Shown here: piece by piece, positions 1-10,807 of the stretch
Numbering within the stretch: the first letter of the stretch is position 1
Layout: each line of letters opens with the position of its first letter
From: a virus
Strand: one strand, 5' to 3'
IMG/VR virus record: IMGVR_UViG_3300045988_043823
DNA length: 10,807 nucleotides
Made by a program: the position numbers and the translations under genes
The notes under the pieces: generated by a model
The model's database searches: none
Seen by the model: the letters and a program-made list of their open reading frames with translations, nothing else
Told to the model about the DNA's origin: nothing

Positions 1-70
1 GATCTAAATATGCACTATCGCCCCCTTTTTAACGTTTCCCAACGCACTTTTAACACCGGCCAACACACTT

Positions 71-86
71 TGGCACGCTTTTTGCC
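71..86 (+). promoter_or_regulatory. Sigma-54 (RpoN)-type -24/-12 box 1, or an origin iteron
   Basis: TGGCACGCTTTTTGCC matches the consensus TGGCACG-N4-TTGCW. GG at 72-73 and GC at 84-85 have the canonical 12-nt offset. Confidence 0.35.
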
Positions 87-127
87 TGGGCCAATGCCAC
101 CATAAAAACAATGCTCCAAAATAAGTT

Positions 128-143
128 TGGCACGCTATTTGCA
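128..143 (+). promoter_or_regulatory. Sigma-54 (RpoN)-type -24/-12 box 2, or an origin iteron
   Basis: TGGCACGCTATTTGCA matches TGGCACG-N4-TTGCW at every position. GG is at 129-130 and GC at 141-142. Confidence 0.4.
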
Positions 144-175
144 TAGCCTAAATTTATTTTGAAATGTTTCACTTT

Positions 176-191
176 TGGCATAGTTTTTGCA
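176..191 (+). promoter_or_regulatory. Sigma-54 (RpoN)-type -24/-12 box 3, or an origin iteron
   Basis: TGGCATAGTTTTTGCA has GG at 177-178 and GC at 189-190 with the same spacing. It is immediately preceded by AAATGTTTCAC, an 11-mer shared with the 662-684 operator-like repeat. Confidence 0.35.
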
Positions 192-237
192 TAAACGAAG
201 AAAACTTTTGTCTTTTAAGATTTATTAGTACAGAAAA

Positions 238-269
238 TTTGCTATCATATACAAAAGTGTGTACCTTTG
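238..269 (+). promoter_or_regulatory. Bacteroidota-type housekeeping promoter (-33 TTTG / -7 TAnnTTTG) for the early operon
   Basis: TTTG (238-241), a 20-nt spacer, then TAccTTTG (262-269). This fits the Bacteroides consensus TTTG-N19-21-TAnnTTTG. It is followed by an A-rich, unstructured leader of about 45 nt running to the ATG at 318. Confidence 0.6.
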
Positions 270-317
270 CAATATCAAAAATAAAACAACAAGCAACAAC
301 TTAAAACTACAAACAAG

Positions 318-632
318 ATGGAAACAAAAAACATTTTACGAGAGTTAAGCGAGATAATAAACAGAGCCGATGAAAATATAAAATACGCCATTAGTGTACG
401 ACACGCTGACACTACGCGTTTATTGGAAGCCATTAGCGACACACTGACAAACGCGGTGAACATCTTGAAAAGTGAAGCAGACCGCCAAACCAACGAACGG
501 GACGAATTCATTAAGAAAATCAACGTTGAAAAGTCTTGTAAAAATCAAGCATATTTTTTCATCTTGGAGAACGGTCTTATAAATGTGTTCAAAGAATTTT
601 GCGCAAATAACCCCCGAATAGATTTTGAATAA
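318..632 (+). CDS. Early protein of unknown function (104 aa, predicted helical/coiled-coil); the first 16 codons lie inside ITR-L
   Basis: First ORF downstream of the left promoter. It starts with ATG and ends with TAA. The sequence is charged and heptad-like (RELSEIINRADENIKY...). I recognise no family. Confidence 0.65.
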   Translation: METKNILRELSEIINRADENIKYAISVRHADTTRLLEAISDTLTNAVNILKSEADRQTNERDEFIKKINVEKSCKNQAYFFILENGLINVFKEFCANNPRIDFE

Positions 633-638
633 CTTAAT

Positions 639-684
639 ATGTTCCACGTGGAACACCTAAAATGTTTCACGTGGAACACTTAAA
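639..684. promoter_or_regulatory. Two tandem 23-bp repeats, each with a CACGTG-centred palindrome (candidate operator pair)
   Basis: The repeats are ATGTTCCACGTGGAACACCTAAA (639-661) and ATGTTTCACGTGGAACACTTAAA (662-684). GTTCCACGTGGAAC at 641-654 is a perfect 14-bp palindrome; the 664-677 copy has one mismatch. The centres are 23 bp apart. Confidence 0.55.
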
Positions 685-694
685 CTAAACAGAA

Positions 695-901
695 ATGAAC
701 AAGAAAAAAATTAAAAACATTTGTGAATATCTTTTTGCCGTGTACGCATTTGCCTTTATCGGGTGTTTAATCTACCTTTGTGCAGTCTTGCAAAGTTGTT
801 CAATGTACAAACAAACCGACATAAACGGCAAAACCACGATTGTTACAACTGATACAACATACATGAACCACAACACACTACTTAAATACAAAAAGAAATG
901 A
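695..901 (+). CDS. Small membrane or lipoprotein-like early protein (68 aa)
   Basis: The basic N-terminus MNKKKIKN is followed by a hydrophobic stretch of about 24 aa ending in VLQSC, which is lipobox-like but not canonical. The polar T/N-rich tail ends in KYKKK. The stop TGA overlaps the next ATG (ATGA). Confidence 0.6.
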   Translation: MNKKKIKNICEYLFAVYAFAFIGCLIYLCAVLQSCSMYKQTDINGKTTIVTTDTTYMNHNTLLKYKKK

Positions 902-1071
902 CCAATGAACAAAACCTATTTGACGATGCAATATTTTCGGCTTGCACGTCACTCGGTCAGCTAATGACCACAAAGGAAGTGAACGCGAACACTCGCACAC
1001 TTTTGAAAATATCAAAATTCAGAAACTACCTACTAGCATTGGGTAACGAACAACAAAGTAATAATCAATAA
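898..1071 (+). CDS. Unlisted small early ORF (57 aa), unknown function
   Basis: I translated it by hand: MTNEQNLFDDAIFSACTSLGQLMTTKEVNANTRTLLKISKFRNYLLALGNEQQSNNQ*. The ATG at 898-900 overlaps the upstream TGA at 899-901. The ORF exactly fills the otherwise empty 901-1083 gap and is probably below the ORF track length cutoff. Confidence 0.5.
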   Translation: MTNEQNLFDDAIFSACTSLGQLMTTKEVNANTRTLLKISKFRNYLLALGNEQQSNNQ

Positions 1072-1082
1072 AAATTAAAGTT

Positions 1083-1442
1083 ATGGTAAGTTTTGCACAA
1101 AAGTATAACAAGTGTAATGTTAACCCGTTCACATTCGATTTGAAAGGCTACACTTTTACAAGCCTAAAAGAATTGTTTAACTCGGATGAAAGCAAAAACA
1201 AAGTGCACTCTTTAGACGGTTTTTATTTCACCCGTGGCAAGTTCGGGGTTCACGCGGTAGTTGTTATGTCAGACGTTAAAAAGCGCGTGGATATTCCGCT
1301 AAACCTTACAGAGTTATTCACCGACATTGTAAACAATAGCGAAGCGGTTAACGACATCAAGTGCGGCAAAGTTGGTTTTATTGTACGAAAGTACGTGAGC
1401 CACAACAAAGAGTGTTATTCAATAACTTTTAAGGATAAGTAA
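1083..1442 (+). CDS. Early protein (119 aa); candidate replication accessory or ssDNA-binding protein, based on position only
   Basis: It lies just upstream of the terminal-protein/polymerase pair, where phi29 encodes its 124-aa SSB. It is followed by a strong intrinsic terminator, as expected for an abundant product. Any sequence resemblance to phi29 p5 is weak and unverified. Confidence 0.55.
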   Translation: MVSFAQKYNKCNVNPFTFDLKGYTFTSLKELFNSDESKNKVHSLDGFYFTRGKFGVHAVVVMSDVKKRVDIPLNLTELFTDIVNNSEAVNDIKCGKVGFIVRKYVSHNKECYSITFKDK

Positions 1443-1448
1443 CAAATT

Positions 1449-1486
1449 CGGGTGGGGAGACGTTAATAACCCACCCGTTTATTTTT
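1449..1486 (+). terminator. Rho-independent terminator or attenuator
   Basis: Stem CGGGTGGG (1449-1456) pairs with CCCACCCG (1470-1477) across a 13-nt loop, followed by TTTATTTTT (1478-1486). The next start codon is only 7 nt downstream. Confidence 0.75.
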
Positions 1487-1492
1487 ATAATT

Positions 1493-2149
1493 ATGGGTGT
1501 AATACGTTTTACAAAAGTGGTTTTTTCAGCCACGCAAAAAGCAAAATTAAAAAAAGAAATTATAGCAGCGGCAAAAAGCGACCCCGAATTGCGCAAAGAA
1601 ATAAGGCGTGTTTTTCATCAAGCAAATAGACGTATACAAAACGTTGAAAGCAAGGGTCTTTTAAGCCCTGCAATAAAGTCCCTAAACAAAGGCGGTGTTA
1701 CGGGGTTTAGTAAGTTTGCGATGGGTGATTTGTCGTGGGAAGAGTTAAAACGCGAATACGCGAAAGCAGTAGCTTTTTTAAGACAGCCTACAAGCACCGT
1801 ACGGGGTACACTCCAATACAACGACCATATAAAAAGCGCGTACGGGCTTACCGACAAAGAATTTAACTTAATGGCCGACCGCATAAACAAAAAGTTACAA
1901 AGCATTTCCGATAGCAAGTTTGTCGAAAAGTATTTGATGCGTTACAAAGACTTTACTGGAGATTTGGAAAGCGAAGCGACCGATGTTAGCTCACAGATTG
2001 AGAGGGACGCAATATCGTTAGAAAACGCTTTACAAAATGATATAGAAAAGTTTGCCAACGAATCAGTTAACGAGGTAGAAAACGATATAAACAAAATAAA
2101 CAGGAATATGCAACGTATTTTGAATTCGTTTGAAAAATTCGGGCTATGA
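1493..2149 (+). CDS. Putative terminal protein (218 aa)
   Basis: It sits immediately upstream of the protein-primed polymerase and is coupled to it by an ATGA overlap at 2146-2149, the canonical TP position in phi29, PRD1 and similar phages. It has a basic N-terminal half and an acidic C-terminal half. The stretch SWEELKREYAKAVAFLRQPTSTVRG resembles the phi29 TP region as I recall it. The priming residue is not identifiable by eye. Confidence 0.55.
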   Translation: MGVIRFTKVVFSATQKAKLKKEIIAAAKSDPELRKEIRRVFHQANRRIQNVESKGLLSPAIKSLNKGGVTGFSKFAMGDLSWEELKREYAKAVAFLRQPTSTVRGTLQYNDHIKSAYGLTDKEFNLMADRINKKLQSISDSKFVEKYLMRYKDFTGDLESEATDVSSQIERDAISLENALQNDIEKFANESVNEVENDINKINRNMQRILNSFEKFGL

Positions 2150-4332
2150 AAAAAGTTGATTATGAACAACGCAATAGCATATACAATGTTTCGGACATAA
2201 GCGAAGTGTTAGAAAAAGCGGTTAACGACAAAAACGTAATTGGCAATAATAAAGGCGTCAAGTTTTACAACGTGCCGTGTTCATTCGATATAGAAACAAC
2301 ATCTTTCTATCGAGATACAGACGGGAACACATACAATTATGAACAATACGCGAAACTCGGTGTAAAATTGGAAAAATGCAGTATTATGTATGTTTGGCAA
2401 TTCGGCATAAACGGGTATATAATAATGGGGCGCACATGGCAAGAATTTACGCAAATGTGTTCCGATATAGTCCGCACTTTGTGCCTATGCGAAAATAAAA
2501 AGTTAATCATCTACATACATAATTTGTCTTATGAATTCCAATTTATACGTACTTTGTTTGAGTGGGAAAAAGTTTTCAGCATAGACGTACGAAAACCTTT
2601 GTACGCTACAACTAAAGGCGGTTTAGAGTTTAGGTGTTCGTATCTGTTAAGCGGTTACAACCTTGCTAAATTGGGCGAGCAATTACAGAAATACAAGTGT
2701 GCAAAATTGGTGGGTGATTTAGATTACACCTTAATACGTCACAACGAAACGCCCCTTACTACGAAAGAAATAATGTATTGTGTTAATGATATTCGCGTGG
2801 TCATGAACTACATACAGGAACTAATAGAACAATACAAGTTAATAACGCGTTTACCACTTACAAAGACAGGGTTTGTACGTAAGCACTGCCGGAAGAATAT
2901 GCTACAAAAACGCGTGAATGGGAAAATCGCACGTAATTGGGAATGTATCAATTTAATACACTCGCTAACAATAAACGGGCTGCATGAATTTAATATGCTC
3001 CAAAGGGCGTTTAGTGGTGGCTTTACTCATGCGAACGCGAACAACGTTGACGAGATTTGCACGAATGTAGCAAGTTACGATTTTACAAGTAGTTACCCGT
3101 ATGTTATGGTGTCGGAAAAATTCCCCATGTCTAAAGGTGTAAGAGTGACCACCCGAAATATGTACGAATTTAATTACTACATAAAAAACTACCTTTGCAT
3201 TTTTGATGTAGAATTTACCGACATTTGTGCAAGTGAGTTGCAAGATAACCCAATAAGTGTAAGCAAGTGCTACATTAAAAAAGATGTGGTAGAAAATAAC
3301 GGGCGTGTCGTATGTGCTAAACAGATTTGCACCACACTTACAAATATAGACTATAACGTTATAAAGATGTTTTACAAGTGGGGTAAAATCAGAATTGGCG
3401 AAATGTACATCTACAAAGCTGACTATTTGCCCACTGAATTTATAAATACTATTTTGGACTTGTACGAAACCAAAACGAAGTTGAAAGGCGTGCAAGGTAA
3501 GGAAGTAGAATATTTGAACTCAAAGGAAATGCTAAATTCTTGCTATGGTATGTGTGTGACAAACCCGTTACGCGATGAATTTACCTATACGGGCAAGTGG
3601 GACACCAACACGTTAACGGAAACAGAAAAGACCGAAATGCTACAAAATTACAACGATAGCAAAAATCGCTTTTTGTTTTACCCTTGGGGTGTGTTCGTTA
3701 CCGCGTATGCAAGGCGAAACTTGTTTACCGCAATCTACGAAGCAAAGCAAGACTATATTTATAGCGACACCGATAGTATCAAATTACAAAACGCAACCAC
3801 ACATAAAAAGTACTTCGATGCGTATAACAATATGGTATATAACAAACTAAAAGCAGCGTGCAAGCACCATAAAATTCCATTCGACAAATGCGCCCCAGAA
3901 ACGATAAAGGGCATTACAAAAATTTTGGGTGTATGGGATTATGAAGGAACTTACACCCGTTTCAAAACGTTAGGAGCAAAACGTTATATGGTTGAGGGAG
4001 AAAACGCCCTGAATGTGGACGGAAAAAGTTATAAATATAGTCTTACTATTAGCGGTGTAAACAAGAAAACCGCGATCCCTTACTTAGTTAAAACGTATGG
4101 TGACAACATATTTAACGCCTTTACAAATTACCTTGAATTTCCATGTGAAGCCACGGGCAAAAATATACATACGTACATAGACTACAAAATAACGGGTGAA
4201 GTTACCGACTATCAAGGTAAAAAATTTACATTTGCAGAAAACACGGGTGTACATTTAGAGCCAACAAGTTATAATTTATCTTTAAGTGTGATGTATCTAA
4301 ATTATCTAAAAGGTATAAAATTAAAAGATTGA
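2146..4332 (+). CDS. Protein-primed family-B DNA polymerase (728 aa)
   Basis: All signature motifs are present. ExoI is FDIETT, ExoII is HNLSYEFQF and ExoIII is YCVNDIRVV. Motif A is YDFTSSYPYVM (Dx2SLYP type), motif B is KEMLNSCYGMCV (Kx3NSxYG), motif C is YIYSDTDSI (YxDTDS) and the KxY motif is GAKRYMV. The order and spacing match phi29 DNAP, with extra insertions. Confidence 0.97.
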   Translation: MKKVDYEQRNSIYNVSDISEVLEKAVNDKNVIGNNKGVKFYNVPCSFDIETTSFYRDTDGNTYNYEQYAKLGVKLEKCSIMYVWQFGINGYIIMGRTWQEFTQMCSDIVRTLCLCENKKLIIYIHNLSYEFQFIRTLFEWEKVFSIDVRKPLYATTKGGLEFRCSYLLSGYNLAKLGEQLQKYKCAKLVGDLDYTLIRHNETPLTTKEIMYCVNDIRVVMNYIQELIEQYKLITRLPLTKTGFVRKHCRKNMLQKRVNGKIARNWECINLIHSLTINGLHEFNMLQRAFSGGFTHANANNVDEICTNVASYDFTSSYPYVMVSEKFPMSKGVRVTTRNMYEFNYYIKNYLCIFDVEFTDICASELQDNPISVSKCYIKKDVVENNGRVVCAKQICTTLTNIDYNVIKMFYKWGKIRIGEMYIYKADYLPTEFINTILDLYETKTKLKGVQGKEVEYLNSKEMLNSCYGMCVTNPLRDEFTYTGKWDTNTLTETEKTEMLQNYNDSKNRFLFYPWGVFVTAYARRNLFTAIYEAKQDYIYSDTDSIKLQNATTHKKYFDAYNNMVYNKLKAACKHHKIPFDKCAPETIKGITKILGVWDYEGTYTRFKTLGAKRYMVEGENALNVDGKSYKYSLTISGVNKKTAIPYLVKTYGDNIFNAFTNYLEFPCEATGKNIHTYIDYKITGEVTDYQGKKFTFAENTGVHLEPTSYNLSLSVMYLNYLKGIKLKD

Positions 4333-4336
4333 AACA

Positions 4337-5467
4337 ATGAAGAAAGAAACAAATAAGAAAGAAACGATAAAATTTTACTCGCTCACCAACATATTAAACA
4401 AAAATGCAGATTATAACATAATATTTGGCGAGCGTTCGAACGGCAAAACGTACGCCACTTTGGCGTATGGCATTAAACGTTACATACAGACGGGCGAACA
4501 AATGGCCTATATACGTAGGTGGCGCGAGGATTTACGCGGCAAACGTGCTGAAAATCTGTTTGCTAACCACGTGGCAAACGGGTATATTGAAGAAGTAACA
4601 AATGGAGAATTTAACTCCGTATTTTATATTGGCGGTAAATGGTATCTTGCAAAATACGACCACGAAAAAAAGAAGTACGCACCACAAACTACACCGTTTT
4701 GCTATGGTTTTTGCTTATCAGAGCAAGAGCACGAAAAAAGTAGCAGTTACCCAAACGTTACCACGATTGTTTTTGATGAGTTTTTAACTCGTAGGTACTA
4801 TTTGCCCGATGAATTTATGTTGTACATGAATCTTTTAAGTACCATAATACGACAGCGCGACAACGTTAAAGTTTTTATGTTAGGTAACACAATAAACAAG
4901 TTTTGCCCCTACTTTAGCGAAATGGGACTAAAGCAAGTTACTAACATGGGCCAGGGCACTATCGATATATACAAGTTTGGCCAACATGGAGCAGTAGTAG
5001 CGGTGGAGTATTGCAGCACGATAGTAAAACAAAAAGCAAGTAACAAGTACTTTTGCTTTGATAATCAAAATCTTGAAATGATAACGGGCGGCAAATGGGA
5101 AATGGCCGCATATCCACATTTGCCCACGAAGTACAAACCAAATGAAGTGCTTTTTGTGTATTACATTGTATTCAACGAATATATTTTGCAGGGCAACATA
5201 ATACAGCACGGAAACGAAAACTTTACGTACATACACGTAAAGACCACCCCAATAAAAGACCCCGAAAACTCGCTAATATACAGCCTACAAATGAACGGAA
5301 AGCAAAACTACAAGCGCAAGTTAATAAGCAGCGCTACCTACATAGAGGCACAAGTAACAAAGTACTTTGCTACTGATAAAGTATTTTACCAAAACAACGA
5401 AGTTGGCGAAATAGTACGAAACTATTTAATGACCTCCGCACGTACTAACATAGTAAGTGTAAAATAA
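4337..5467 (+). CDS. DNA encapsidation (packaging) ATPase, phi29 gp16-like (376 aa)
   Basis: Walker A is IIFGERSNGKTYA, compared with phi29 VIGARGIGKSYA. GEQMAYIRRWREDL compares with GEQFIYVRRYKPEL. Walker B is SSYPNVTTIVFDEFLTR, compared with NAYPNVSTIVFDEFIRE. The phi29 sequences are from memory. Confidence 0.9.
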   Translation: MKKETNKKETIKFYSLTNILNKNADYNIIFGERSNGKTYATLAYGIKRYIQTGEQMAYIRRWREDLRGKRAENLFANHVANGYIEEVTNGEFNSVFYIGGKWYLAKYDHEKKKYAPQTTPFCYGFCLSEQEHEKSSSYPNVTTIVFDEFLTRRYYLPDEFMLYMNLLSTIIRQRDNVKVFMLGNTINKFCPYFSEMGLKQVTNMGQGTIDIYKFGQHGAVVAVEYCSTIVKQKASNKYFCFDNQNLEMITGGKWEMAAYPHLPTKYKPNEVLFVYYIVFNEYILQGNIIQHGNENFTYIHVKTTPIKDPENSLIYSLQMNGKQNYKRKLISSATYIEAQVTKYFATDKVFYQNNEVGEIVRNYLMTSARTNIVSVK

Positions 5468-5473
5468 AAACAC

Positions 5474-5481
5474 TATCTTTG
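5474..5481 (+). promoter_or_regulatory. Candidate -7 element (TAtcTTTG) for the morphogenesis genes
   Basis: TAtcTTTGca lies in the 41-nt gap after the ATPase stop, 28 nt before the ATG at 5509. It has the same TAyCTTTGC core as the ITR promoter. No clear -33 TTTG is present. Confidence 0.45.
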
Positions 5482-5508
5482 CAGTAAACTTTTCAAAACT
5501 ATAAATTC

Positions 5509-5712
5509 ATGGATATAAATGAAGTTATACAAGTTATTTCAAATGTGGGGTTTCCTATTGGTATGTGCTTACTCGTGTTTTACTACATGACAAAACAAGA
5601 CACAAAGCACACAGAGGAAACAGAACATTTGCGTACAACTTTAGAGGAAAACACAAAGGTACTATCTGAACTAACAACTTTAATAAAAAACGTGTATGTC
5701 AAAGAAAGATAA
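5509..5712 (+). CDS. Small single-pass membrane protein, YvrJ-like (67 aa); possible holin or lysis-related protein
   Basis: VISNVGFPIGMCLLVFYYM followed by a charged helical tail resembles YvrJ-family proteins (...GFPI...YLL...) as I recall them. There is one predicted TM segment. The ORF overlaps the portal start by 17 nt. Confidence 0.6.
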   Translation: MDINEVIQVISNVGFPIGMCLLVFYYMTKQDTKHTEETEHLRTTLEENTKVLSELTTLIKNVYVKER

Positions 5713-6592
5713 TTTTTACTTGAAATATCAAGAGCAAATTAAAAGCAAGGACAAAAGCGTAAACAGCTATATTCAAAAAATGTTGGCTGTTTCTCAAGCA
5801 ATGTTTGTTTATACGGGGCTGCCCGAAACACTCCCACAAGTAGAACTTGAAACGCTTTTACAGACTAACGGCAATGTGTTCGTAACAAAGGTAAACGGGG
5901 ATTTATATGCGTTTACCGGTGGTTGGGGCGGTGTACCGGACGCGTACAACAGACCAACCGAATACATAGTTTCAAACACGTACTTACAACTGAATAAAAC
6001 GTATAAAATAGGTGTTGACGGGGTTCTGGTCAAAAATGATAGCGGAGCGAATAGTCTATTACCCATTTTTGGCAAGTATGGCGTTTTATGTGCTGATACT
6101 CTTTTGTCATTAAATACGTGTTCGGTATTGTCGCGTATTACAATGCTAATCAGTGCGAGCGATGACAAGACAAAGCAAAGTGCCGATGATTTTGTAAGTA
6201 AAATAATAAATGGAGATTTCTCGGTGATTGGCGAAAACGCATTTTTCAAGGGCGTTAACCTACAAAGCATTAACTCCCAAAGCGCGAACCAAATCGGCCA
6301 ACTAATAGAACTTTTGCAGTACTTCAAGGCCAGTGCATTTAACGAAATAGGGCTGAACGCTAACTACAATCTAAAGCGCGAGCGACTGAACACAAGCGAA
6401 GTGCAAATGAATGTGGACGCGTTAAACCCATACGTTGATAATATGCTACAAGAGCGCAAAAAAGCAGTAGACAAAATAAACGAAATGTTTGGTACTGAAA
6501 TAAACGTGGAACTTGGAAGTAGCTGGGCAATACGAAAAGAGGAAACAGAAAACGACAATGCGAAAATTCTACTGAATAAGAAACGGAAGTAA
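5696..6592 (+). CDS. Portal / upper collar connector, phi29 gp10-like (298 aa)
   Basis: The size matches gp10 (about 309 aa). Recalled gp10 blocks align: MFVYTGLPETLP..LETLL..NGNVFV with LFEWENLPPTIN..LEKSI..FGYVGF; AFNEIGLNANYNLKRERLNTSEV with [22 protein letters not shown]; and RKKAVDKINEMFGTEINVEL with REEACEKINELYGLNVKVKF. Confidence 0.85.
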   Translation: MSKKDNFYLKYQEQIKSKDKSVNSYIQKMLAVSQAMFVYTGLPETLPQVELETLLQTNGNVFVTKVNGDLYAFTGGWGGVPDAYNRPTEYIVSNTYLQLNKTYKIGVDGVLVKNDSGANSLLPIFGKYGVLCADTLLSLNTCSVLSRITMLISASDDKTKQSADDFVSKIINGDFSVIGENAFFKGVNLQSINSQSANQIGQLIELLQYFKASAFNEIGLNANYNLKRERLNTSEVQMNVDALNPYVDNMLQERKKAVDKINEMFGTEINVELGSSWAIRKEETENDNAKILLNKKRK

Positions 6593-6712
6593 CAGAAACA
6601 GACACCGAAACGGAAAAAGAAACGGATACAGAAACAGACACCGAAACGGAAAAAGAAACGGATACAGAAACAGACACCGAAACGGAAAAAGAAACAGAAA
6701 AAGAAAAGAAAC
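6592..6712 (+). repeat. Tandem direct repeat array: 36-bp unit x ~3 (two perfect copies plus 32 nt), built from 12-bp sub-repeats GAAACRGA-N4
   Basis: ACAGAAACAGACACCGAAACGGAAAAAGAAACGGAT occurs at 6592-6627 and 6628-6663, with a partial copy at 6664-6695. GAAAC(A/G)GA recurs every 12 nt from 6595 to 6691, with an extra copy at 6580-6587 inside the portal 3' end. The + strand carries a single T per 36-bp unit. Confidence 0.95.
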
Positions 6713-7282
6713 ATGAAAATAATTGACATCTACCCCGACCCACAAAACGGGCTATTCACAAAGGTTTTCAAGGATAATTTTGCGGAACAATACACGGCAA
6801 TTTTTGGAGACCTTGATAGTGTGGGGCTTGATACACTTGTGATTTTGGAGTATGGCGAAAGAGAAATGCTAAACACCATAACACAGGACAACGCCAACAC
6901 ATATGTTAAAAACGTCATCGCATTAAGTTTGCCAAATTGGGTAAAGGTGGCGAACGCGTACAACACAAAATACAACGTGTTAGAACCAACGCAAAAGACA
7001 ACCACAAAAACCAATAACGCCACAGAAAGCGAAAACAACACTAACACAAACGTATCATCAAACAAGCCATATAATGAAACGACTTTTGAGGAATACGACA
7101 AAGACAACAACACAAGCGACAAAACCCGTACAAATAAAACAGAAGTAACCGAAAGTGTAACGGGGCTAAATGGCAAGTCGGCCGTAGATGAGTTGCAAAA
7201 AGATATAGACTTTTCATTGAGAAATTGGAGAAAAAGCATTATCTTTGCCGTAATAAATGAAATAACAAAATCAATTTACTAA
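6713..7282 (+). CDS. Structural protein (189 aa); candidate lower collar (gp11-like head-tail adaptor/tube) or scaffold
   Basis: It lies between the portal gene and the capsid gene. In phi29 gene 11 follows gene 10, and the gene 7 scaffold precedes gene 8. Globular ends flank a T/N/K/E-rich central segment of about 60 aa that could form the extended beta-hairpin of a collar tube. The assignment is positional and compositional only. Confidence 0.4.
   Translation: MKIIDIYPDPQNGLFTKVFKDNFAEQYTAIFGDLDSVGLDTLVILEYGEREMLNTITQDNANTYVKNVIALSLPNWVKVANAYNTKYNVLEPTQKTTTKTNNATESENNTNTNVSSNKPYNETTFEEYDKDNNTSDKTRTNKTEVTESVTGLNGKSAVDELQKDIDFSLRNWRKSIIFAVINEITKSIY
7215..7247 (+). promoter_or_regulatory. Candidate promoter for the major capsid gene (ATTG-N21-TAtcTTTG)
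   Basis: TAtcTTTGcc at 7240-7247 lies 48 nt upstream of the ATG at 7295, inside the 3' end of the preceding ORF. A -33-like ATTG sits at 7215-7218. The TAyCTTTGC core is shared with the two other intergenic candidates. Confidence 0.4.
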
Positions 7283-7294
7283 AATACACGTAAT

Positions 7295-8467
7295 ATGAAA
7301 GTAAACCAGATTTACAAGCTACTTAACGACGTAACACAAGAGGTTTTAGGTAGCACCGAACTAGTGAATGAAGATTTGACGGGCCTGGTTGATTTGGGTG
7401 CAGAAGTATTCAACCAAAATGCCGTAGACAATTACGTTAAATCTTTGGTTAACCATATCGGTAAGGTAATCTTTGTAAACCGCCCGTATAGCGGCAAAAT
7501 TCCATCTGTGTTAATGGATAGTTGGGAGTTCGGAAGCGTACTCGAAAAGATAAATGCCGACATTCCCGAAGCAGAGGAAAACAAAACTTGGGATTTGGTA
7601 GATGGTCAATCGTACTCACAGGACGTTTTCCACAAGCCCGTAGTTACTGCAAAATTCTTTAATTCAAAGGTGACTTTTGAGGTGCCCGTATCTATCACAG
7701 AGCGACAAGTAAAGGAAAGTTTCAGCAACTCGGAACAACTCAACGCTTTTTTATCAATGATATATAGTGCGGTAGAAAAAGCAATCACCATCAAGACGGA
7801 TGCGCTAATCATGCGAACAATAAACAACATGATTGGTGAAACACTCATAGCAGACGCTACTGCATTCGGTAAGGATGGCTCAGAAGATTACACAAGCGCA
7901 TCTACTGCACGATGTGTGAACCTCCTTAAGTTGTACAACACACAGAAAGGCGCAACTTTGGCCGCTGATAAAGCAATTACCGACCCCGATTTCATTAAAT
8001 TCGCATCTTACAACATCGGTTTGTATAGTGACCGACTTGCAAGCATCTCGAGCGTGTTTAACATTGGCGGTAAGGCCCGTTTCACACCTAAAGAGAATTT
8101 GCATATTGTTTTGCTCTCGGAATTTGAAAAAGCCGCAAAGACGTACCTCTATGCAGATAGCTACAACAAAGACCAAGTGCTTTTGCCGAACGCTGAAACT
8201 ATCCCATTTTGGCAGGCGAGCGGCACAAAGTACGATTTTGCAAGTACATCACACATCAAAATCAAGGAGACAAACGGCAAATCTGTTGAGATTAGTGGGG
8301 TGCTTGGTGTTATGTTTGACAGAGATGCGTTGGGCGTTTGCAACCTCGACCGTCGCGTTACTACTAACTACAACGCAAAGGCGGAGTTCTTCAACAACTA
8401 CTACAAGTTTGATGCCGGCTATTTCAATGACACTAACGAAAATTTCGTAGTTTTCTTTGTTGCTTAA
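7295..8467 (+). CDS. Major capsid protein, phi29 gp8-like HK97-fold core (390 aa), without a C-terminal Ig-like domain
   Basis: The N-terminal block LGAEVFNQNAVDNYVKSLVNHIGKVIFVNR compares with recalled phi29 [30 protein letters not shown]. The C-terminal ...FFNNYYKF...NFVVFFVA compares with ...LYTNYYLHV...NAVAFV. The gene is followed by the strongest terminator in the genome, consistent with the most abundant transcript. Confidence 0.8.
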   Translation: MKVNQIYKLLNDVTQEVLGSTELVNEDLTGLVDLGAEVFNQNAVDNYVKSLVNHIGKVIFVNRPYSGKIPSVLMDSWEFGSVLEKINADIPEAEENKTWDLVDGQSYSQDVFHKPVVTAKFFNSKVTFEVPVSITERQVKESFSNSEQLNAFLSMIYSAVEKAITIKTDALIMRTINNMIGETLIADATAFGKDGSEDYTSASTARCVNLLKLYNTQKGATLAADKAITDPDFIKFASYNIGLYSDRLASISSVFNIGGKARFTPKENLHIVLLSEFEKAAKTYLYADSYNKDQVLLPNAETIPFWQASGTKYDFASTSHIKIKETNGKSVEISGVLGVMFDRDALGVCNLDRRVTTNYNAKAEFFNNYYKFDAGYFNDTNENFVVFFVA

Positions 8468-8501
8468 AGTTTTTGGTTATTAAATTGTTGTTTTGTTTAT
8501 T

Positions 8502-8539
8502 GGGGTGTAAGTTAAACAACTTGCACCCCTTTAATTTTT
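8502..8539 (+). terminator. Rho-independent terminator after the capsid gene
   Basis: A 12-bp stem GGGGTGTAAGTT (8502-8513) pairs with AACTTGCACCCC (8518-8529), including one G-U pair. The loop is AAAC and the tail is TTTAATTTTT (8530-8539). Confidence 0.85.
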
Positions 8540-8545
8540 CAAACT

Positions 8546-8992
8546 ATGGAAACAATTCATTTCTATAATTACAACGGGGATATGAAAGTAATAAATAAAA
8601 CGCTTTCCCCTCCTACTGATATGGATTGTACGTTATGGAAAACCTTTGACGTGCTACACCCTTCTTTGCTTGTAAGACTGCAAGAAAGACCAACTTTCAA
8701 CTACTGCAAAATAGATAGTTTGAACCGCTTTTATTTCGTTGATAGTATTAAATTCATTGGAAATTTCACGTATGAAATTCTTCTATCGGTGGACGTGCTC
8801 AAAACGTACGAAAATGATATATTGAGGGTAAAAGGACATGTTGCGGTATCTGATGACCCAGATAAATACATATCCACAAGGCAAAGCATATATTCAAGAA
8901 CGCCGAACTTTGAAAAAATACCGTTTCCGAATACGGGGTTATTGAATGATACAGGCACAATGATAATGATAACTATTAAAGGTAATAAGTAA
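8546..8992 (+). CDS. Tail knob (phi29 gp9-like) N-terminal-domain protein (148 aa)
   Basis: NRFYFVDSIKFIGNFTYEILLSVDVLKTYENDILRVKGHV parallels recalled gp9 [47 protein letters not shown]. The ORF ends in TAATG, sharing one base with the next start. Confidence 0.55.
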   Translation: METIHFYNYNGDMKVINKTLSPPTDMDCTLWKTFDVLHPSLLVRLQERPTFNYCKIDSLNRFYFVDSIKFIGNFTYEILLSVDVLKTYENDILRVKGHVAVSDDPDKYISTRQSIYSRTPNFEKIPFPNTGLLNDTGTMIMITIKGNK

Positions 8993-10395
8993 TGACAGAC
9001 TTCAAATTTACAAATAACATTCCTAACACAACCGAAGATTATCCCGATATGATTATAAACGGAGAAAGCGAGGTGGGAACGCAAGTACCGCAAGTTACGG
9101 TAAACAATGAAATTGCAGATACGACAGAATCACACATTATAAATGATAGCCAAGTAGAAATTACCGTAAAGGGAGATAAAGCGGGCTGTTGGTTTTTTGA
9201 CGCTAAAGCGAATTATAAAGATAAAGGCAATTTAGACAAATCTGTAAATATGGTTGTAAGCGGAACACGACCGCACTACGCTAAAATAACAATAAATGAC
9301 GCCGATTTTAATTACCCTATCACGTTAACGGGAACTTATGAACGTTCGTATGAAATAAACAATAGAACGGAAAATTGTACCGTTGAAAACTTGAAAGAGC
9401 ATTACAAGGATAAAGAACCCGTAACAATAGCATTAACGGCTAATAAGGGATATATATTCGACAATGAAAACAAGCCTATAATTAATTTCCAATCTTCATT
9501 CAGCTCTTACAAAGTTGAAAGTACATTACAGGACGGAAATAAAAAGGCTGTATTTTCGTGGTTAATGAATGAGGGTGTAAGAAACCCTAATACAGGAACT
9601 TATTACCTTAAAGGAAGCGCAAAGCCAGACACAACACCGCCCGTTGGTGGTAAATACGGGGCTATCAATGTCTATATAGTAAATGATGACGTGTTAGACC
9701 AATTAGCGAAACAAAGATTTATACAAAGCACGGGAACGAACGAAAACGCTACGGCAATCGATATAGGCGACTATGTAAACCGTATTAAAAGGATATACAC
9801 GGATATAACCGAAAGAGGCGAAAGTACACTATCATTAGGGAACTATAATACGGGTATAACGGTAAAAACTCCAGCGCTTGAAAATATAACGCTTGACTAT
9901 GGTAGTATTACCGTACCGGCACCAAACAAGGATATTACAGACTATGACAGTAACTTTAAGCTGTTCCTACCGTTCAAAGGTTTTGTTTCTTTAAGTGAGG
10001 AATATGCCGGCAAGGAAATAAACCTACAATACGTTGTGAATATAATAACAGGTAACGGCGTTGCAAAATTATCGTGTGATGGGAGTGTATTCCAAGTAGA
10101 GACCGTAACACCGTCTTTAGACGTTATATATAGGACACTCGCACAAGATATTAGACAGGTAGGAGGCGATAGTTGGAACGATTTCGCATTATATGGAATA
10201 GAGCCGTATTTATACGCTACTTATTATGTGAGCAAAACTGATATTAGAAATAATGACAGTAAACGAAGCGTATTAGGCCATTTGAAGGGGTTTGTTTCGG
10301 TTGATGATGTGGATATTATTAGCACCACTAATATGCTTGCTGACGAACAGGAAATGATATATAATAAACTTTCTGACGGGGTTTATATAGAGTAA
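8992..10395 (+). CDS. Tail knob (gp9-like) C-terminal portion with an inserted beta-rich region; probable distal tail and receptor-binding protein (467 aa)
   Basis: KLFLPFKGFVSLSEEYAGKEINLQYVVNIITGNGVAKL and the C-terminal ADEQEMIYNKLSDGVYIE parallel recalled gp9 segments [26 protein letters not shown]... and NDLQEIRTIFDNGITLW. The combined length 148+467=615 aa compares with about 599 aa for gp9. Residues ~55-210 look like two tandem beta-sandwich-like modules, each ending in TGTY. Confidence 0.55.
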   Translation: MTDFKFTNNIPNTTEDYPDMIINGESEVGTQVPQVTVNNEIADTTESHIINDSQVEITVKGDKAGCWFFDAKANYKDKGNLDKSVNMVVSGTRPHYAKITINDADFNYPITLTGTYERSYEINNRTENCTVENLKEHYKDKEPVTIALTANKGYIFDNENKPIINFQSSFSSYKVESTLQDGNKKAVFSWLMNEGVRNPNTGTYYLKGSAKPDTTPPVGGKYGAINVYIVNDDVLDQLAKQRFIQSTGTNENATAIDIGDYVNRIKRIYTDITERGESTLSLGNYNTGITVKTPALENITLDYGSITVPAPNKDITDYDSNFKLFLPFKGFVSLSEEYAGKEINLQYVVNIITGNGVAKLSCDGSVFQVETVTPSLDVIYRTLAQDIRQVGGDSWNDFALYGIEPYLYATYYVSKTDIRNNDSKRSVLGHLKGFVSVDDVDIISTTNMLADEQEMIYNKLSDGVYIE

Positions 10396-10410
10396 CCTAA
10401 TTAGACAATA

Positions 10411-10443
10411 AGAAAGGCGGCAACTAATTGTTACCGTCTTTCT
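10411..10443. terminator. Bidirectional hairpin terminator straddling the ITR-R boundary
   Basis: AGAAAGGCGG (10411-10420) pairs with CCGTCTTTCT (10434-10443) as 10 bp with one G-U pair and a 13-nt loop. Moderately U-rich sequence follows on both strands. It lies 16 nt after the last + strand stop, and the stop codon of the minus-strand mini-ORF falls in its loop. Confidence 0.6.
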
Positions 10444-10490
10444 CTGTTTATTATCTCGCTTAACTCTCGTAAAATGTTTTTTGTTTCCAT
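10431..10490 (-). CDS. 19-codon mini-ORF (METKNILRELSEIINRERR*), created by the ITR copy of the ORF1 start
   Basis: The mirror of the ATG at 318 is at 10490-10488. The first 16 codons are ITR-encoded, followed by GAA AGA CGG TAA. It may be a by-product of ITR structure rather than a functional gene. Confidence 0.25.
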   Translation of the reverse strand: METKNILRELSEIINRERR

Positions 10491-10538
10491 CTTGTTTGTA
10501 GTTTTAAGTTGTTGCTTGTTGTTTTATTTTTGATATTG

Positions 10539-10570
10539 CAAAGGTACACACTTTTGTATATGATAGCAAA
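10539..10570 (-). promoter_or_regulatory. ITR-R copy of the TTTG-N20-TAccTTTG promoter, firing inward
   Basis: Exact mirror of 238-269; CAAAGGTA at 10539-10546 on the + strand is the -7 element. Confidence 0.5.
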
Positions 10571-10616
10571 TTTTCTGTACTAATAAATCTTAAAAGACAA
10601 AAGTTTTCTTCGTTTA

Positions 10617-10737
10617 TGCAAAAACTATGCCAAAAGTGAAACATTTCAAAATAAATTTAGGCTATGCAAATAGCGTGCCAAACTTATTTTGGAGCATTGT
10701 TTTTATGGTGGCATTGGCCCAGGCAAAAAGCGTGCCA
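10617..10737 (-). promoter_or_regulatory. Mirror copies of the three sigma-54-type boxes in ITR-R, facing inward
   Basis: These are the ITR images of 71-86, 128-143 and 176-191, at 10722-10737, 10665-10680 and 10617-10632 on the minus strand. Confidence 0.3.
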
Positions 10738-10807
10738 AAGTGTGTTGGCCGGTGTTAAAAGTGCGTTGGGAAACGTTAAAAAGGGGGCGATAGTGCATAT
10801 TTAGATC

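Follow-up and report, generated by a model that had tools for sequence, protein, structure and literature searches.

Can a metagenomic contig of less than 11 kb be a whole tailed-phage genome, and is such a phage new? The window, the 10,807-nt stretch of IMG/VR virus record IMGVR_UViG_3300045988_043823 analysed here at its full length (GC 37.7%), was read in a first-pass annotation as a complete, very small phi29-like tailed-phage genome bounded by inverted terminal repeats (ITRs), and as a distinct, possibly undescribed lineage. Our analysis supports the former: the window is very probably a complete genome, the linear dsDNA of an uncultured podophage from the human gut that falls in the Astrithrvirus-like branch of protein-primed, phi29-like phages. 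It is a gut phage genome among the smallest of the tailed phages, and it belongs to an already described miniature phi29-like group (Astrithrvirus and relatives).

The two arms (1-366 and 10442-10807, 366 nt each) show 100% complementarity and reach both window edges. The perfect inverted repeat of the annotation therefore stands, but its length does not. Bases 1-5 (GATCT) and their mirror 10803-10807 (AGATC) are not phage sequence but a remnant of the 3′ end of the Illumina TruSeq adapter, since a longer adapter piece ending in GTGTGCTCTTCCGATCT is fused to the same terminus in five relatives (L063, L074, L013, L001 and L006) and 33 of 58 mapped ends begin exactly at AAA; the relatives L002, L003, L010 and L011 begin exactly at AAATATGCA. 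With 5 nt removed from each end, the true genome is 6-10802 (10,797 bp). The left ITR (6-366, plus strand, 361 bp, 5′-AAATATGCA) contains the candidate replication origin and the early control region, and arm comparison shows the right ITR (10442-10802, minus strand) to be identical to it. Among fetched IMG/VR contigs (the best 80 of at least 340), 50 have flush ITRs, in genomes of 10.66-12.69 kb. Completeness is supported because many independent relatives terminate at exactly the same base as the true end of the window.

Thirteen ORFs, all rightward as annotated, cover 89.8% of the window, and for each of them a homologue occurs in the majority of the 80 fetched relatives (again the best 80 of at least 340). 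The core order is terminal-protein (TP) candidate, family B DNA polymerase (PolB), ATPase, small membrane protein, connector, putative lower collar, major capsid protein (MCP) and split tail knob. All features, palindromes apart, are on the plus strand unless noted. At the left end, a 104-aa early protein (318-632) has its first 16 codons inside the ITR, and the 5′ end of its gene is duplicated in the right ITR as a 19-codon stub, METKNILRELSEIINR followed by ERR* (10431-10490, minus strand). The next gene (695-901) is conserved in 68 loci and encodes a 68-aa predicted lipoprotein; its signal peptide and lipobox VLQS↓C were read directly from the sequence, and family searches gave no match. 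Two further conserved early proteins with homologues in relatives are of 57 aa (898-1071) and 119 aa (1083-1442). No link was found between the latter and phi29 p5 or the astrithr gp13 family, and an SSB or DNA-binding role for it is only a guess.

The TP candidate (1493-2149) has 218 aa, is all-alpha with an acidic C-terminal helix, and overlaps the PolB start with its stop (ATGA). Its annotation is based on position and on homology to astrithr gp02 (29% identity), which was called a p3 counterpart by Evseev 2024 (PMC11476376), and was not confirmed by fold: the AF2 model (pLDDT 74) is helical throughout and had no significant fold match in the PDB, hhalign against phi29 p3 gave nil, and in PHROGs a few of its homologues had scattered, unrelated weak matches. 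The other replication, packaging and head assignments of the annotation were confirmed by Pfam and PDB searches. They are the protein-primed PolB (2146-4332, 728 aa; PF03175, 4.6e-12; phrog_1907, 2.6e-70; best PDB match phi29 DNA polymerase, 2.8e-9), the gp16-type packaging ATPase (4337-5467, 376 aa; PF05894, 3.4e-23; phi29 gp16, 2e-21), a truncated gp10-type head-tail connector (5696-6592, 298 aa; PF05352, 1.7e-14) and the phi29-type (gp8-like) MCP (7295-8467, 390 aa; PF25622, 1.7e-51). Between ATPase and connector lies a 67-aa protein (5509-5712) that combines a transmembrane segment at the N terminus with a coiled coil. It is homologous to astrithr gp05 (33% identity), family searches gave no match, and it is a holin-like candidate.

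Three genes appear to make up the tail. The 189-aa protein (6713-7282), syntenic with astrithr gp07, is a putative short lower collar or tail tube protein; the lower-collar assignment follows Evseev 2024 (PMC11476376), and hhalign to phi29 gp11 is weak (E 0.022). The annotated gp9-like component is a tail knob divided over two proteins. The proximal one (8546-8992, 148 aa) is equivalent to the N-terminal domain found in phi29 gp9 (hhalign 6.8e-4) and Streptococcus phage C1 gp12 (4eo2, E=4e-4). The distal one (8992-10395, 467 aa) has a variable N-half with two Ig-like domains that is likely to bind the receptor, and a conserved C-half whose homologues are the C-parts of gp10 from astrithr and from Acinetobacter phage Aci01-2-Phanie (Phanie). 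This distal protein is only 40% identical to that of relative L001, against about 87% DNA identity in the rest of the L001 genome. Endolysin, scaffold protein and pRNA were looked for in the window and none was found.

Megablast against 50,697 GenBank phage records returned nothing, and the near-identical classified phage that would have contradicted novelty was thus absent there. Nucleotide similarity makes the window a new species in an unclassified genus, and its relation to every classified phage is below genus level. At least 340 IMG/VR contigs are closer to it than the cultured phages are. Unclassified gut genomes (L001, L003 and the GenBank 'Bacteriophage sp.' faecal MAGs with proteins UWG73444, UWI20457 and UWG72930) share all 13 gene families, the AAATATGCA termini and the ITR motifs. 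L003 is 79% identical over 95% of the window and L001 87% over 85%, both below the 95% species line. The probable receptor-binding half of the tail gene is a different one (40% identity to L001); L003 further differs in its 617-nt ITR, which contains the whole 104-aa gene, and in having an amidase.

The range of roughly 16-21 kb that the annotation gave for cultured phi29-like phages is out of date, since isolates of 10.4-11.9 kb exist: Salmonella astrithr, Astrid and assan, Pectobacterium DU_PP_III, Acinetobacter Phanie, Enterobacter Entb_47, Shigella vB_SHGBLB0004 and Vibrio K58 g2. Window identities to these are 55-58% for MCP (maximum 58.6%) and 41-45% for PolB (maximum 44.8%). In the collinear core (astrithr, Phanie, K58 g2) they are 29% for TP, 33% for the small transmembrane protein, 45% for the connector, 36% for the knob N-part and 23-26% for its C-part. 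The astrithr group resembles the window in size, low GC (Astrid, 39.8%) and gene order (TP candidate, PolB, gp16 ATPase, small transmembrane protein and connector, then a protein of about 185 aa, MCP, a knob N-part of about 146 aa and a large knob C-part). It has no nucleotide similarity to the window, carries an endolysin after the tail gene and two to four leftward right-end genes (the window has neither, its accessory genes being rightward at the left end), and uses Shine-Dalgarno sites, which the window does not; the ITR of astrithr is about 18 nt long and starts GG, whereas that of the window has 361 nt and starts AAA. Phanie shares the core gene order, a flush ITR (171 nt) and the split knob, whose distal C-part matches the 467-aa protein (26% identity over 184 aa); unlike the window, it has an amidase-type lysin, a distal tail protein of 854 aa and leftward genes at its right end. 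More distantly, phi29 (Bacillus; Salasmaviridae, Picovirinae) shares protein-primed PolB, gp16 ATPase, gp10 connector, gp8-type MCP and gp9-type knob, and like the window it has terminal inverted repeats with AAA at the ends, whereas its 19.3-kb genome has a 6-bp ITR and divergent early and late units. The phi29 pRNA, scaffold, head fibre, appendages, gp13 lysin, holin and endolysin have no counterpart found in the window.

The annotation took the single transcription direction, the long ITRs and the position of the ATPase as marks of a distinct lineage, possibly an undescribed family-level group, unlike known phi29-like phages. The lack of any nucleotide-level GenBank match, identities to any cultured phage of at most 58.6% (MCP) and 44.8% (PolB), and the placement of all 13 genes on one strand agree with this, as does the absence of a family assignment for Astrithrvirus in ICTV/NCBI. 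We consider it improbable, however. The group, including faecal metagenomic genomes, was described as 'cluster 23' by Evseev et al. 2024 (PMC11476376; 11.2-12.5 kb for the faecal 'Bacteriophage sp.' genomes in Table S1). Nine of the 13 genes match astrithr genes by position, eight of them also by sequence and the 189-aa protein by position only, and the ATPase is placed identically in the cultured 10.4-11.9 kb phages. ITRs of 55-1050 nt are the clade rule (51 genomes). The single direction is real here, but it hinges on where one small gene, that of the 104-aa protein, lies, and it differs between close relatives. In the window this gene is at the left end; 49 relatives carry the homologue at their right end on the minus strand, and L003 and L038 have it in both ITRs. 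What remains of the family-level claim is that Astrithrvirus sits in no family and that the window falls below genus level to classified phages.

Since almost all relatives have a longer connector, this particular sequence could stem from a defective variant or from local misassembly. Missing from the truncated connector is the acidic low-complexity tail found in 78 of 86 relatives and retained in cultured phages including the astrithr group; a T-free 12/36-nt tandem repeat (GAAAC..., 6574-6712) at its end is the orphaned coding remnant of that ETETE tail. Measured between conserved anchors, L001 and L002 have 43 nt more in this region (a difference that is not a multiple of 3), the acidic-tail frame carries CAA>TAA, and in L117, another assembly of this virus, a 100-N scaffold gap falls exactly here (window 6552-6627); L003 moreover has its amidase gene after the tail gene, where the window has none. 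That flush ITR, missing lysin and truncated connector are all products of assembly or degeneration is nonetheless quite unlikely, given that the two assemblies agree at 100% identity outside the repeat, all other ORFs are intact and conserved, the 50 contigs noted above have identical-terminus ITRs, and lysin absence is the clade rule, with endolysin only in L003 and L087 among roughly 85 gut-clade genomes examined. The same absence favours a helper-dependent (satellite-like) phage that needs the tail, perhaps also lysis functions, of a co-infecting phage, as do the knob split as in Phanie and the lack of a tail-fibre or spike gene. Phanie, helper-dependent by experiment, is reported to need the tail of myophage Aci01-1 in order to infect (Pourcel et al. 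2024, J Virol, as relayed in PMC11476376), and that review suggests that its relatives may behave alike. Yet a preprint (bioRxiv 10.1101/2025.06.18.659913) treats Astrid and astrithr as isolates that are not satellites, the distal knob has its own hypervariable Ig-like N-half, expected of an autonomous receptor-binding protein, and the window carries no sign of interaction with another phage; we find helper dependence unlikely.

In the left ITR, three inward-facing TTTGGCAC(G)-N4-TTGCW copies (71-85, 128-142 and 176-190) match the sigma-54 -24/-12 consensus and are mirrored in the right ITR (10618-10737, minus strand). Described by a PWM, this motif has six matches in the window versus 0.04 expected and occurs in 68 of 83 loci, and in 56 of 58 ends a distance of 65-66 nt separates the first copy from the true terminus; it is absent from three cultured genomes. 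A Bacteroides-type promoter candidate, TTTG-N20-TACCTTTG (238-269), lies 49 nt upstream of the first ORF, with a mirror copy in the right ITR (10539-10570, minus strand); the composite TTTG-N18-22-TAnnTTTG was observed five times versus 0.85 expected. Ahead of the 68-aa gene, two CACGTG-core palindromes, TGTTCCACGTGGAACA and TGTTTCACGTGGAACA (641-677, a stretch that TRF also reports), form a candidate operator. Such palindromes have three matches in the window versus 0 expected and occur in 73 loci, mostly as pairs and upstream of the same gene; they are absent from the cultured phages. A strong intrinsic terminator hairpin and T-run directly follow the capsid gene (8502-8529), and a terminator-like hairpin facing the right ITR (10418-10436, minus strand) would stop inward transcription from the promoter copies there.

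The host is probably a member of Bacteroidota, judging by expression signals only: the genes are without Shine-Dalgarno sites (such motifs precede 9% of 1011 gut-clade genes versus 8% background and 58% in cultured relatives), and the promoter motifs are Bacteroides-type. The best cultured matches of the L003 amidase are lysins of Bacteroides, Flavobacterium and other Gram-negative phages; MAG labels of related contigs spread over many phyla and are uninformative.

In the life cycle that we propose, the 218-aa product of the gene directly before PolB would be the terminal protein capping both 5′ ends, and replication would begin at both ITR ends opposite 3′-TTT, with sliding-back as in phi29. 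Transcription would run rightward only, starting at control elements that lie within the left ITR and shortly behind it, and be attenuated after the capsid gene, while the right ITR promoter copy would fire into its terminator. The ATPase would pump unit-length TP-DNA through the connector, and the short tail would consist of a small lower collar and a knob of the 148-aa and 467-aa proteins, the latter of which may recognize the host through its two Ig-like domains.

Bases 1–366 and 10442–10807 of the window form an inverted repeat of 366 nt that is 100% complementary and flush with both window edges. The first-pass annotation was right about the perfect, flush repeat and wrong about its length, because the outer 5 nt at each end (bases 1–5, GATCT, and bases 10803–10807, AGATC) are an Illumina TruSeq adapter remnant and not phage DNA. 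The true genome is window 6–10802, 10,797 bp; it has the linear form with inverted terminal repeats (ITRs) that marks phi29-like phages broadly, here with real ITRs of 361 bp and a 5′ start of AAATATGCA. The same kind of fusion between adapter and terminus is seen in other contigs of the group, with GACGTGTGCTCTTCCGATCT running directly into AAAGGTACGC in L063, CTCTTCCGATCT into AAATATGCAT in L001 and TCT into AAATATGCAC in L006, and four further relatives (L002, L003, L010 and L011) carry no adapter and have the start of AAATATGCA as their first base. Fifty-eight contig ends could be anchored, and at 33 of them AAA are the first bases; this start is common to both subclades (AAATATGCA and AAAGGTACGC). 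Up to ~68 nt of TruSeq or Nextera adapter remain at contig ends in L013, L036, L045, L049, L063 and L074. An adapter joined straight to a conserved end in many independent assemblies indicates a physical DNA terminus and is good evidence for completeness. The virus has also been assembled a second time (ENA ERZ28596390, label LIUW16-1_SAMN05414935; Logan SRR3992986), with 100% identity except at one repeat; the label probably denotes a human gut cohort. The window is, as had been claimed, a real and complete genome of a miniature phi29-like phage.

Thirteen plus-strand ORFs (57–728 aa) fill 89.8% of the window, whose GC content is 37.7%. All have homologues in most of the best 80 related IMG/VR contigs, which upholds the earlier call of 13 co-directional genes; minus-strand ORFs are antisense to plus-strand genes or lie inside the ITRs, and none matches a family conserved in relatives. 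Pfam, PHROGs and PDB searches of the hallmark proteins also confirmed the proposed PolB, gp16-, gp10- and gp8-like set. PolB (2146–4332) is of the protein-primed family B type, DNA_pol_B_2 (PF03175, 4.6e-12; best PDB match phi29 DNAP, 1xhx, 2.8e-9), with a conserved YxDTDS motif; the ATPase (4337–5467) is gp16-type (PF05894, 3.4e-23; phi29 gp16, 2e-21), the connector (5696–6592) gp10-type (PF05352, 1.7e-14) and the major capsid protein (MCP, 7295–8467) phi29-type (PF25622, 1.7e-51). The 189-aa protein (6713–7282), syntenic in position with the short lower collar, has no PDB-profile or PHROG match, and its hhalign comparison with phi29 gp11 is weak (E 0.022, 2% probability). NCBIfam and PADLOC scans of the window proteins without an assigned function gave nothing real. 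The 119-aa protein (1083–1442) was considered as an SSB and rejected, being related neither to phi29 p5 nor to the protein that astrithr, Phanie and K58, all cultured phages, conserve at their right end. No tRNAs were found in the window, and a search for a pRNA gene, a Salasmaviridae trait, gave no Rfam match at E ≤ 10 except two chance snoRNA hits. A structured RNA in the 312-nt non-coding ITR was also rejected, as the segment folds no better than its shuffles (z = −0.89 as RNA, −0.21 as DNA).

Megablast against 50,697 GenBank phage records found no nucleotide match, in agreement with the expectation that no near-identical phage had been classified. By tblastn, the window matches cultured phages of 10.4–11.9 kb: Salmonella astrithr, Astrid and assan, Enterobacter Entb_47, Acinetobacter Phanie, Pectobacterium DU_PP_III, Shigella vB_SHGBLB0004 and Vibrio K58 g2. 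Identity to these is 55–58.6% for MCP, over 100% of the protein, and 40–45% for PolB; Amedibacillus phages and faecal MAGs come next, with at most 35%, and for MCP at most 34%. Pairwise identity to cultured homologues falls from 45% for the connector through 36% for the N-part of the tail knob, 33% for the small transmembrane (TM) protein and 29% for the terminal protein (TP) candidate to 23–26% for the knob C-part. Window and cultured maps have a common core order: a ~200-aa protein, PolB, ATPase, a ~65-aa protein, connector, a ~185-aa protein, MCP, a ~146-aa protein and a large tail protein. The MCP clusters with those of Astrid, DU_PP_III and Phanie ('MCP cluster 23'), and all top cultured MCP matches are Astrithrvirus-like phages. 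The passages of Evseev et al. 2024 (PMC11476376) that treat this cluster give it genomes of 11–14 kb, a short lower collar, Gram-negative hosts and a tail knob built from two genes with Ig-like domains; entries of its Table S1 place faecal 'Bacteriophage sp.' genomes of 11.2–12.5 kb there. The split knob with Ig-like domains in the distal gene is found in the window (148-aa and 467-aa proteins).

The idea of an undescribed family-level architecture had therefore to be given up, since cultured phages of 10.4–11.9 kb have the same core order and cluster 23 has been described; the window adds a species to a kind of phage known before. It falls outside the genus Astrithrvirus, for which ICTV asks that genome-wide nucleotide identity to the type species be some 70% or higher: megablast gave no match, and protein identity to astrithr is 57.6% for MCP and 44.8% for PolB. 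Astrithrvirus itself has no family in NCBI taxonomy. At least 340 IMG/VR contigs are related to the window, and the GenBank proteins UWG73444, UWI20457 and UWG72930 belong to its clade. Closest to it are the genomes L003, with 79% identity across 95% of the window, and L001, with 87% across 85%, values that would make them roughly members of the same genus and of different species. Similarity to phi29 proteins is detectable at profile level only, and phi29 and Salasmaviridae have divergent early (leftward) and late (rightward) units, whereas all window genes run rightward. The cultured phages carry 2–4 leftward genes at the right end; the accessory genes of the window are at the left end and are four in number, small and rightward.

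The putative terminal protein is the 218-aa product of 1493–2149, proposed by analogy with phi29; its stop overlaps the PolB start and it is 29% identical to astrithr gp02. Its AF2 model (pLDDT 74) is all-alpha with an acidic C-terminal helix, and this fold has no Foldseek PDB match below E 0.39. Alignment to phi29 p3 by hhalign gave nothing, and PHROGs returned only scattered, unrelated weak matches. Public data hold 3,187 clusters of the family at 90% identity, and residues T100-S101-T102 and S58 are invariant. If the phi29 scheme applies, replication would start opposite the 3′-terminal T run with sliding-back, and the TP-DNA would be packaged through the connector by the gp16-type ATPase.

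The 'gp9-like' call is right for the 148-aa protein (8546–8992), whose profile matches the N-terminal part of phi29-type knobs (Streptococcus C1, 4eo2, 4e-4; phi29 gp9 by hhalign, 6.8e-4), with the amendment that the knob is split over two genes. The distal part, the 467-aa protein (8992–10395), has two confident Ig-like domains at residues ~30–210 in its AF2 model, with Foldseek matches to tandem Ig receptors at ~2e-4. Its C-half is conserved and homologous to the gp10 C-part; the AF2 monomer model of residues 215–467 is of low confidence, and hhalign of this half against phi29 gp9 gave E 0.43. The N-half is the most variable stretch of the genome, being 40% identical to L001 where other L001 genes are 65–95% identical (most 77–95%). 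Window 8992–9640 and L001 8906–9490 differ by a swap of the Ig-like N-half between genomes otherwise ~87% identical. Such variability fits a receptor-binding role, and the Ig-like N-half is a likely host-range cassette.

Terminator-like hairpins lie directly after the capsid gene (8502–8529, plus strand) and just inside the right ITR (10436–10418, minus strand). The ITR boundary runs through the gene of the 104-aa protein (318–632, of which 318–366 lie in the left ITR), and the right ITR copy holds its first 16 codons followed by a stop after 19 codons (stub 10431–10490). Together, the stub and the minus-strand terminator make inward transcription from the right end appear a dead end. Among relatives the homologue of this gene is at the right end on the minus strand in 49 and at the left end on the plus strand in 7, and L003 (617-nt ITR) and L038 (1050-nt ITR) have a copy within each ITR; ITR length ranges from 55 to 1050 nt. 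Since the position of the gene varies with the ITR, the ITR boundary moves and shifts the gene from one end to the other. A single transcription direction, which had been taken to set the lineage apart, is correct for the window and is a sub-lineage state, as the 49 minus-strand homologues show.

Each ITR of the window contains three inward-facing copies of TTTGGCAC(G)-N4-TTGCW, six in all against 0.04 expected. The array (TTTGGCACG-N4-TTGCW; 71–85, 128–142 and 176–190 on the plus strand, 10618–10737 on the minus strand) matches the sigma-54 −24/−12 consensus. ITRs across the gut clade of metagenomic relatives have one to three directional copies of the perfect sigma-54 (RpoN) consensus TTGGCACG-N4-TTGCW; among 136 distinct terminal instances the flanks vary, and the positions that never change coincide exactly with the −24/−12 consensus. 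The motif occurs in 68 of 83 loci, inward in every case, and not in the cultured phages; at 56 of 58 ends, 65 or 66 nt separate the start of its first copy from the true terminus. These motifs could be sigma-54-dependent promoters, or they could be a directional protein-binding array of the replication origin; partial inverted half-sites (CGTGCCAAA) near them favour the latter. We found no earlier report of a sigma-54-like terminal array of this kind in the literature. It is rather unlikely, in our estimate, that a host sigma-54 holoenzyme binds here and that this is a tailed-phage lineage with sigma-54-based early transcription, or a sigma-54-based origin; if it is, the lineage, which also has no recognisable endolysin, would stand out among tailed phages in how it expresses its genes as well as in how it leaves the cell.

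In some 20 loci of a group B (e.g. L029 5150–5164), a conserved terminator-like hairpin (CGGGCGGTTTGG...CCAAACCGCCCG, then Ts) near the junction of the ATPase and small TM protein genes holds a sigma-54-like string in its loop; the window has no such copy. A second motif, a palindrome with a CACGTG core (TTYCACGTGGAAC), occurs twice at 641–677, and 73 loci have such palindromes (TGTTYCACGTGGAACA), in most cases paired and placed upstream of the 68-aa gene. They are likely an operator. In the other subclade the palindromes lie inside both ITRs, and some genomes have an extra copy between PolB and ATPase.

The host was sought in expression signals. None of the 13 window genes has a real Shine–Dalgarno (SD) site, as the one match, AAGG in front of the last gene, is weak and 4 nt long; the same scoring finds sites at 12 of 15 astrithr genes and 11 of 13 Phanie genes. 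Over 1011 gene starts in 86 gut-clade genomes an SD-like motif occurs at 9%, against a background of 8% and against 58% in the cultured relatives. SD-independent initiation is characteristic of Bacteroidota, and from this and the missing SD sites we infer a host in that phylum, an assignment we hold to be somewhat probable. The Bacteroides housekeeping promoter pattern TTTG-N18-22-TAnnTTTG was found 5 times where 0.85 were expected, with one copy (238–269) 49 nt upstream of the first ORF. Gene leaders in the window and the 86 related genomes are A/T-rich, which points to initiation of the Bacteroidota type. MAG labels were tried as a guide to the host and set aside: the 32 related contigs in GTDB genomes bear labels from Prevotella to Melainabacteria to Staphylococcaceae, a scatter likely due to whole phage genomes having been mis-binned. 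Many of these contigs (L084–L115) are ~10–13 kb and whole-phage-like, in MAGs labelled Prevotella, Melainabacteria, Gastranaerophilales, Staphylococcaceae, Christensenellaceae and others. Several more distant GTDB contigs have a different gene order, with MCP near 2.3–3.1 kb.

No lysin domain was detected in any window protein by Pfam and further profile scans. The endolysin that follows the tail genes in all cultured Astrithrvirus-like members is absent from the window (10396–10441). The astrithr-type lysin is confined to the three cultured genomes examined, and of ~85 gut-clade genomes examined only L003 and L087 have a lysin: an Amidase_2 in L003 (10537–10941, after the tail gene; 1.2e-16), whose nearest cultured matches, taken as a further host signal, are Bacteroides, Flavobacterium, Helicobacter and marine Gram-negative phage lysins, and an M15-like peptidase ORF, recognized by motif, in L087 (10308–10733). 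The only candidate lysis proteins of the window are the conserved 67-aa TM protein (5509–5712), a homologue of astrithr gp05, and the 68-aa lipoprotein (695–901). The latter has a signal peptide, a lipobox (VLQS|C) and a T/N-rich mature peptide of ~33 aa; it is kept in 68 relatives and sits among early genes, and it could act in superinfection exclusion or lysis.

The window might be a helper-dependent satellite of the Phanie type, its infectivity needing the tail of a helper phage; there are indirect hints of this in that the window has neither a fibre or spike gene nor a lysin gene. In 78 of 86 relatives, and in every cultured phage examined, the connector is extended by a long acidic tail of low complexity; that of the window ends at 298 aa and has lost the acidic ETETE... 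C-terminal tail. Between conserved anchors this region is 43 nt shorter in the window than in L001 and L002, with a CAA>TAA change in the acidic frame, and a T-free 12/36-nt tandem repeat (6574–6712) is left orphaned in what is now apparent intergenic DNA. The truncation may be an assembly problem; the second assembly (L117) has a 100-N scaffold gap over window 6552–6627. Programmed frameshifting or readthrough that would restore the tail was rejected, because the acidic frame is closed by TAA and the stretch from one stop to the other has no slippery heptamer; the 'open' frames at the repeat are a trivial result of T-depletion. Similar connector truncations are seen in L005 and L034. The acidic tail is itself a clade-wide trait and might take the place of the scaffold protein, which is missing here.

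At 10,797 bp, this complete tailed-phage genome is smaller than the smallest isolated tailed phage cited in a passage of recent work, 11.6 kb (bioRxiv 10.1101/2025.06.18.659913), and its 13 genes come close to the smallest set of parts for a tailed virion. Completeness surveys keyed on direct terminal repeats would overlook genomes bounded by ITRs in this way. The missing lysin, the mobile ITR boundary and the sigma-54-like motifs at a fixed distance from the terminus are leads worth following and leave the classification unchanged. Astrithrvirus-like miniature phages, in culture known from Proteobacteria only, yet have a large uncultured human-gut radiation, whose expression signals point to Bacteroidota hosts.
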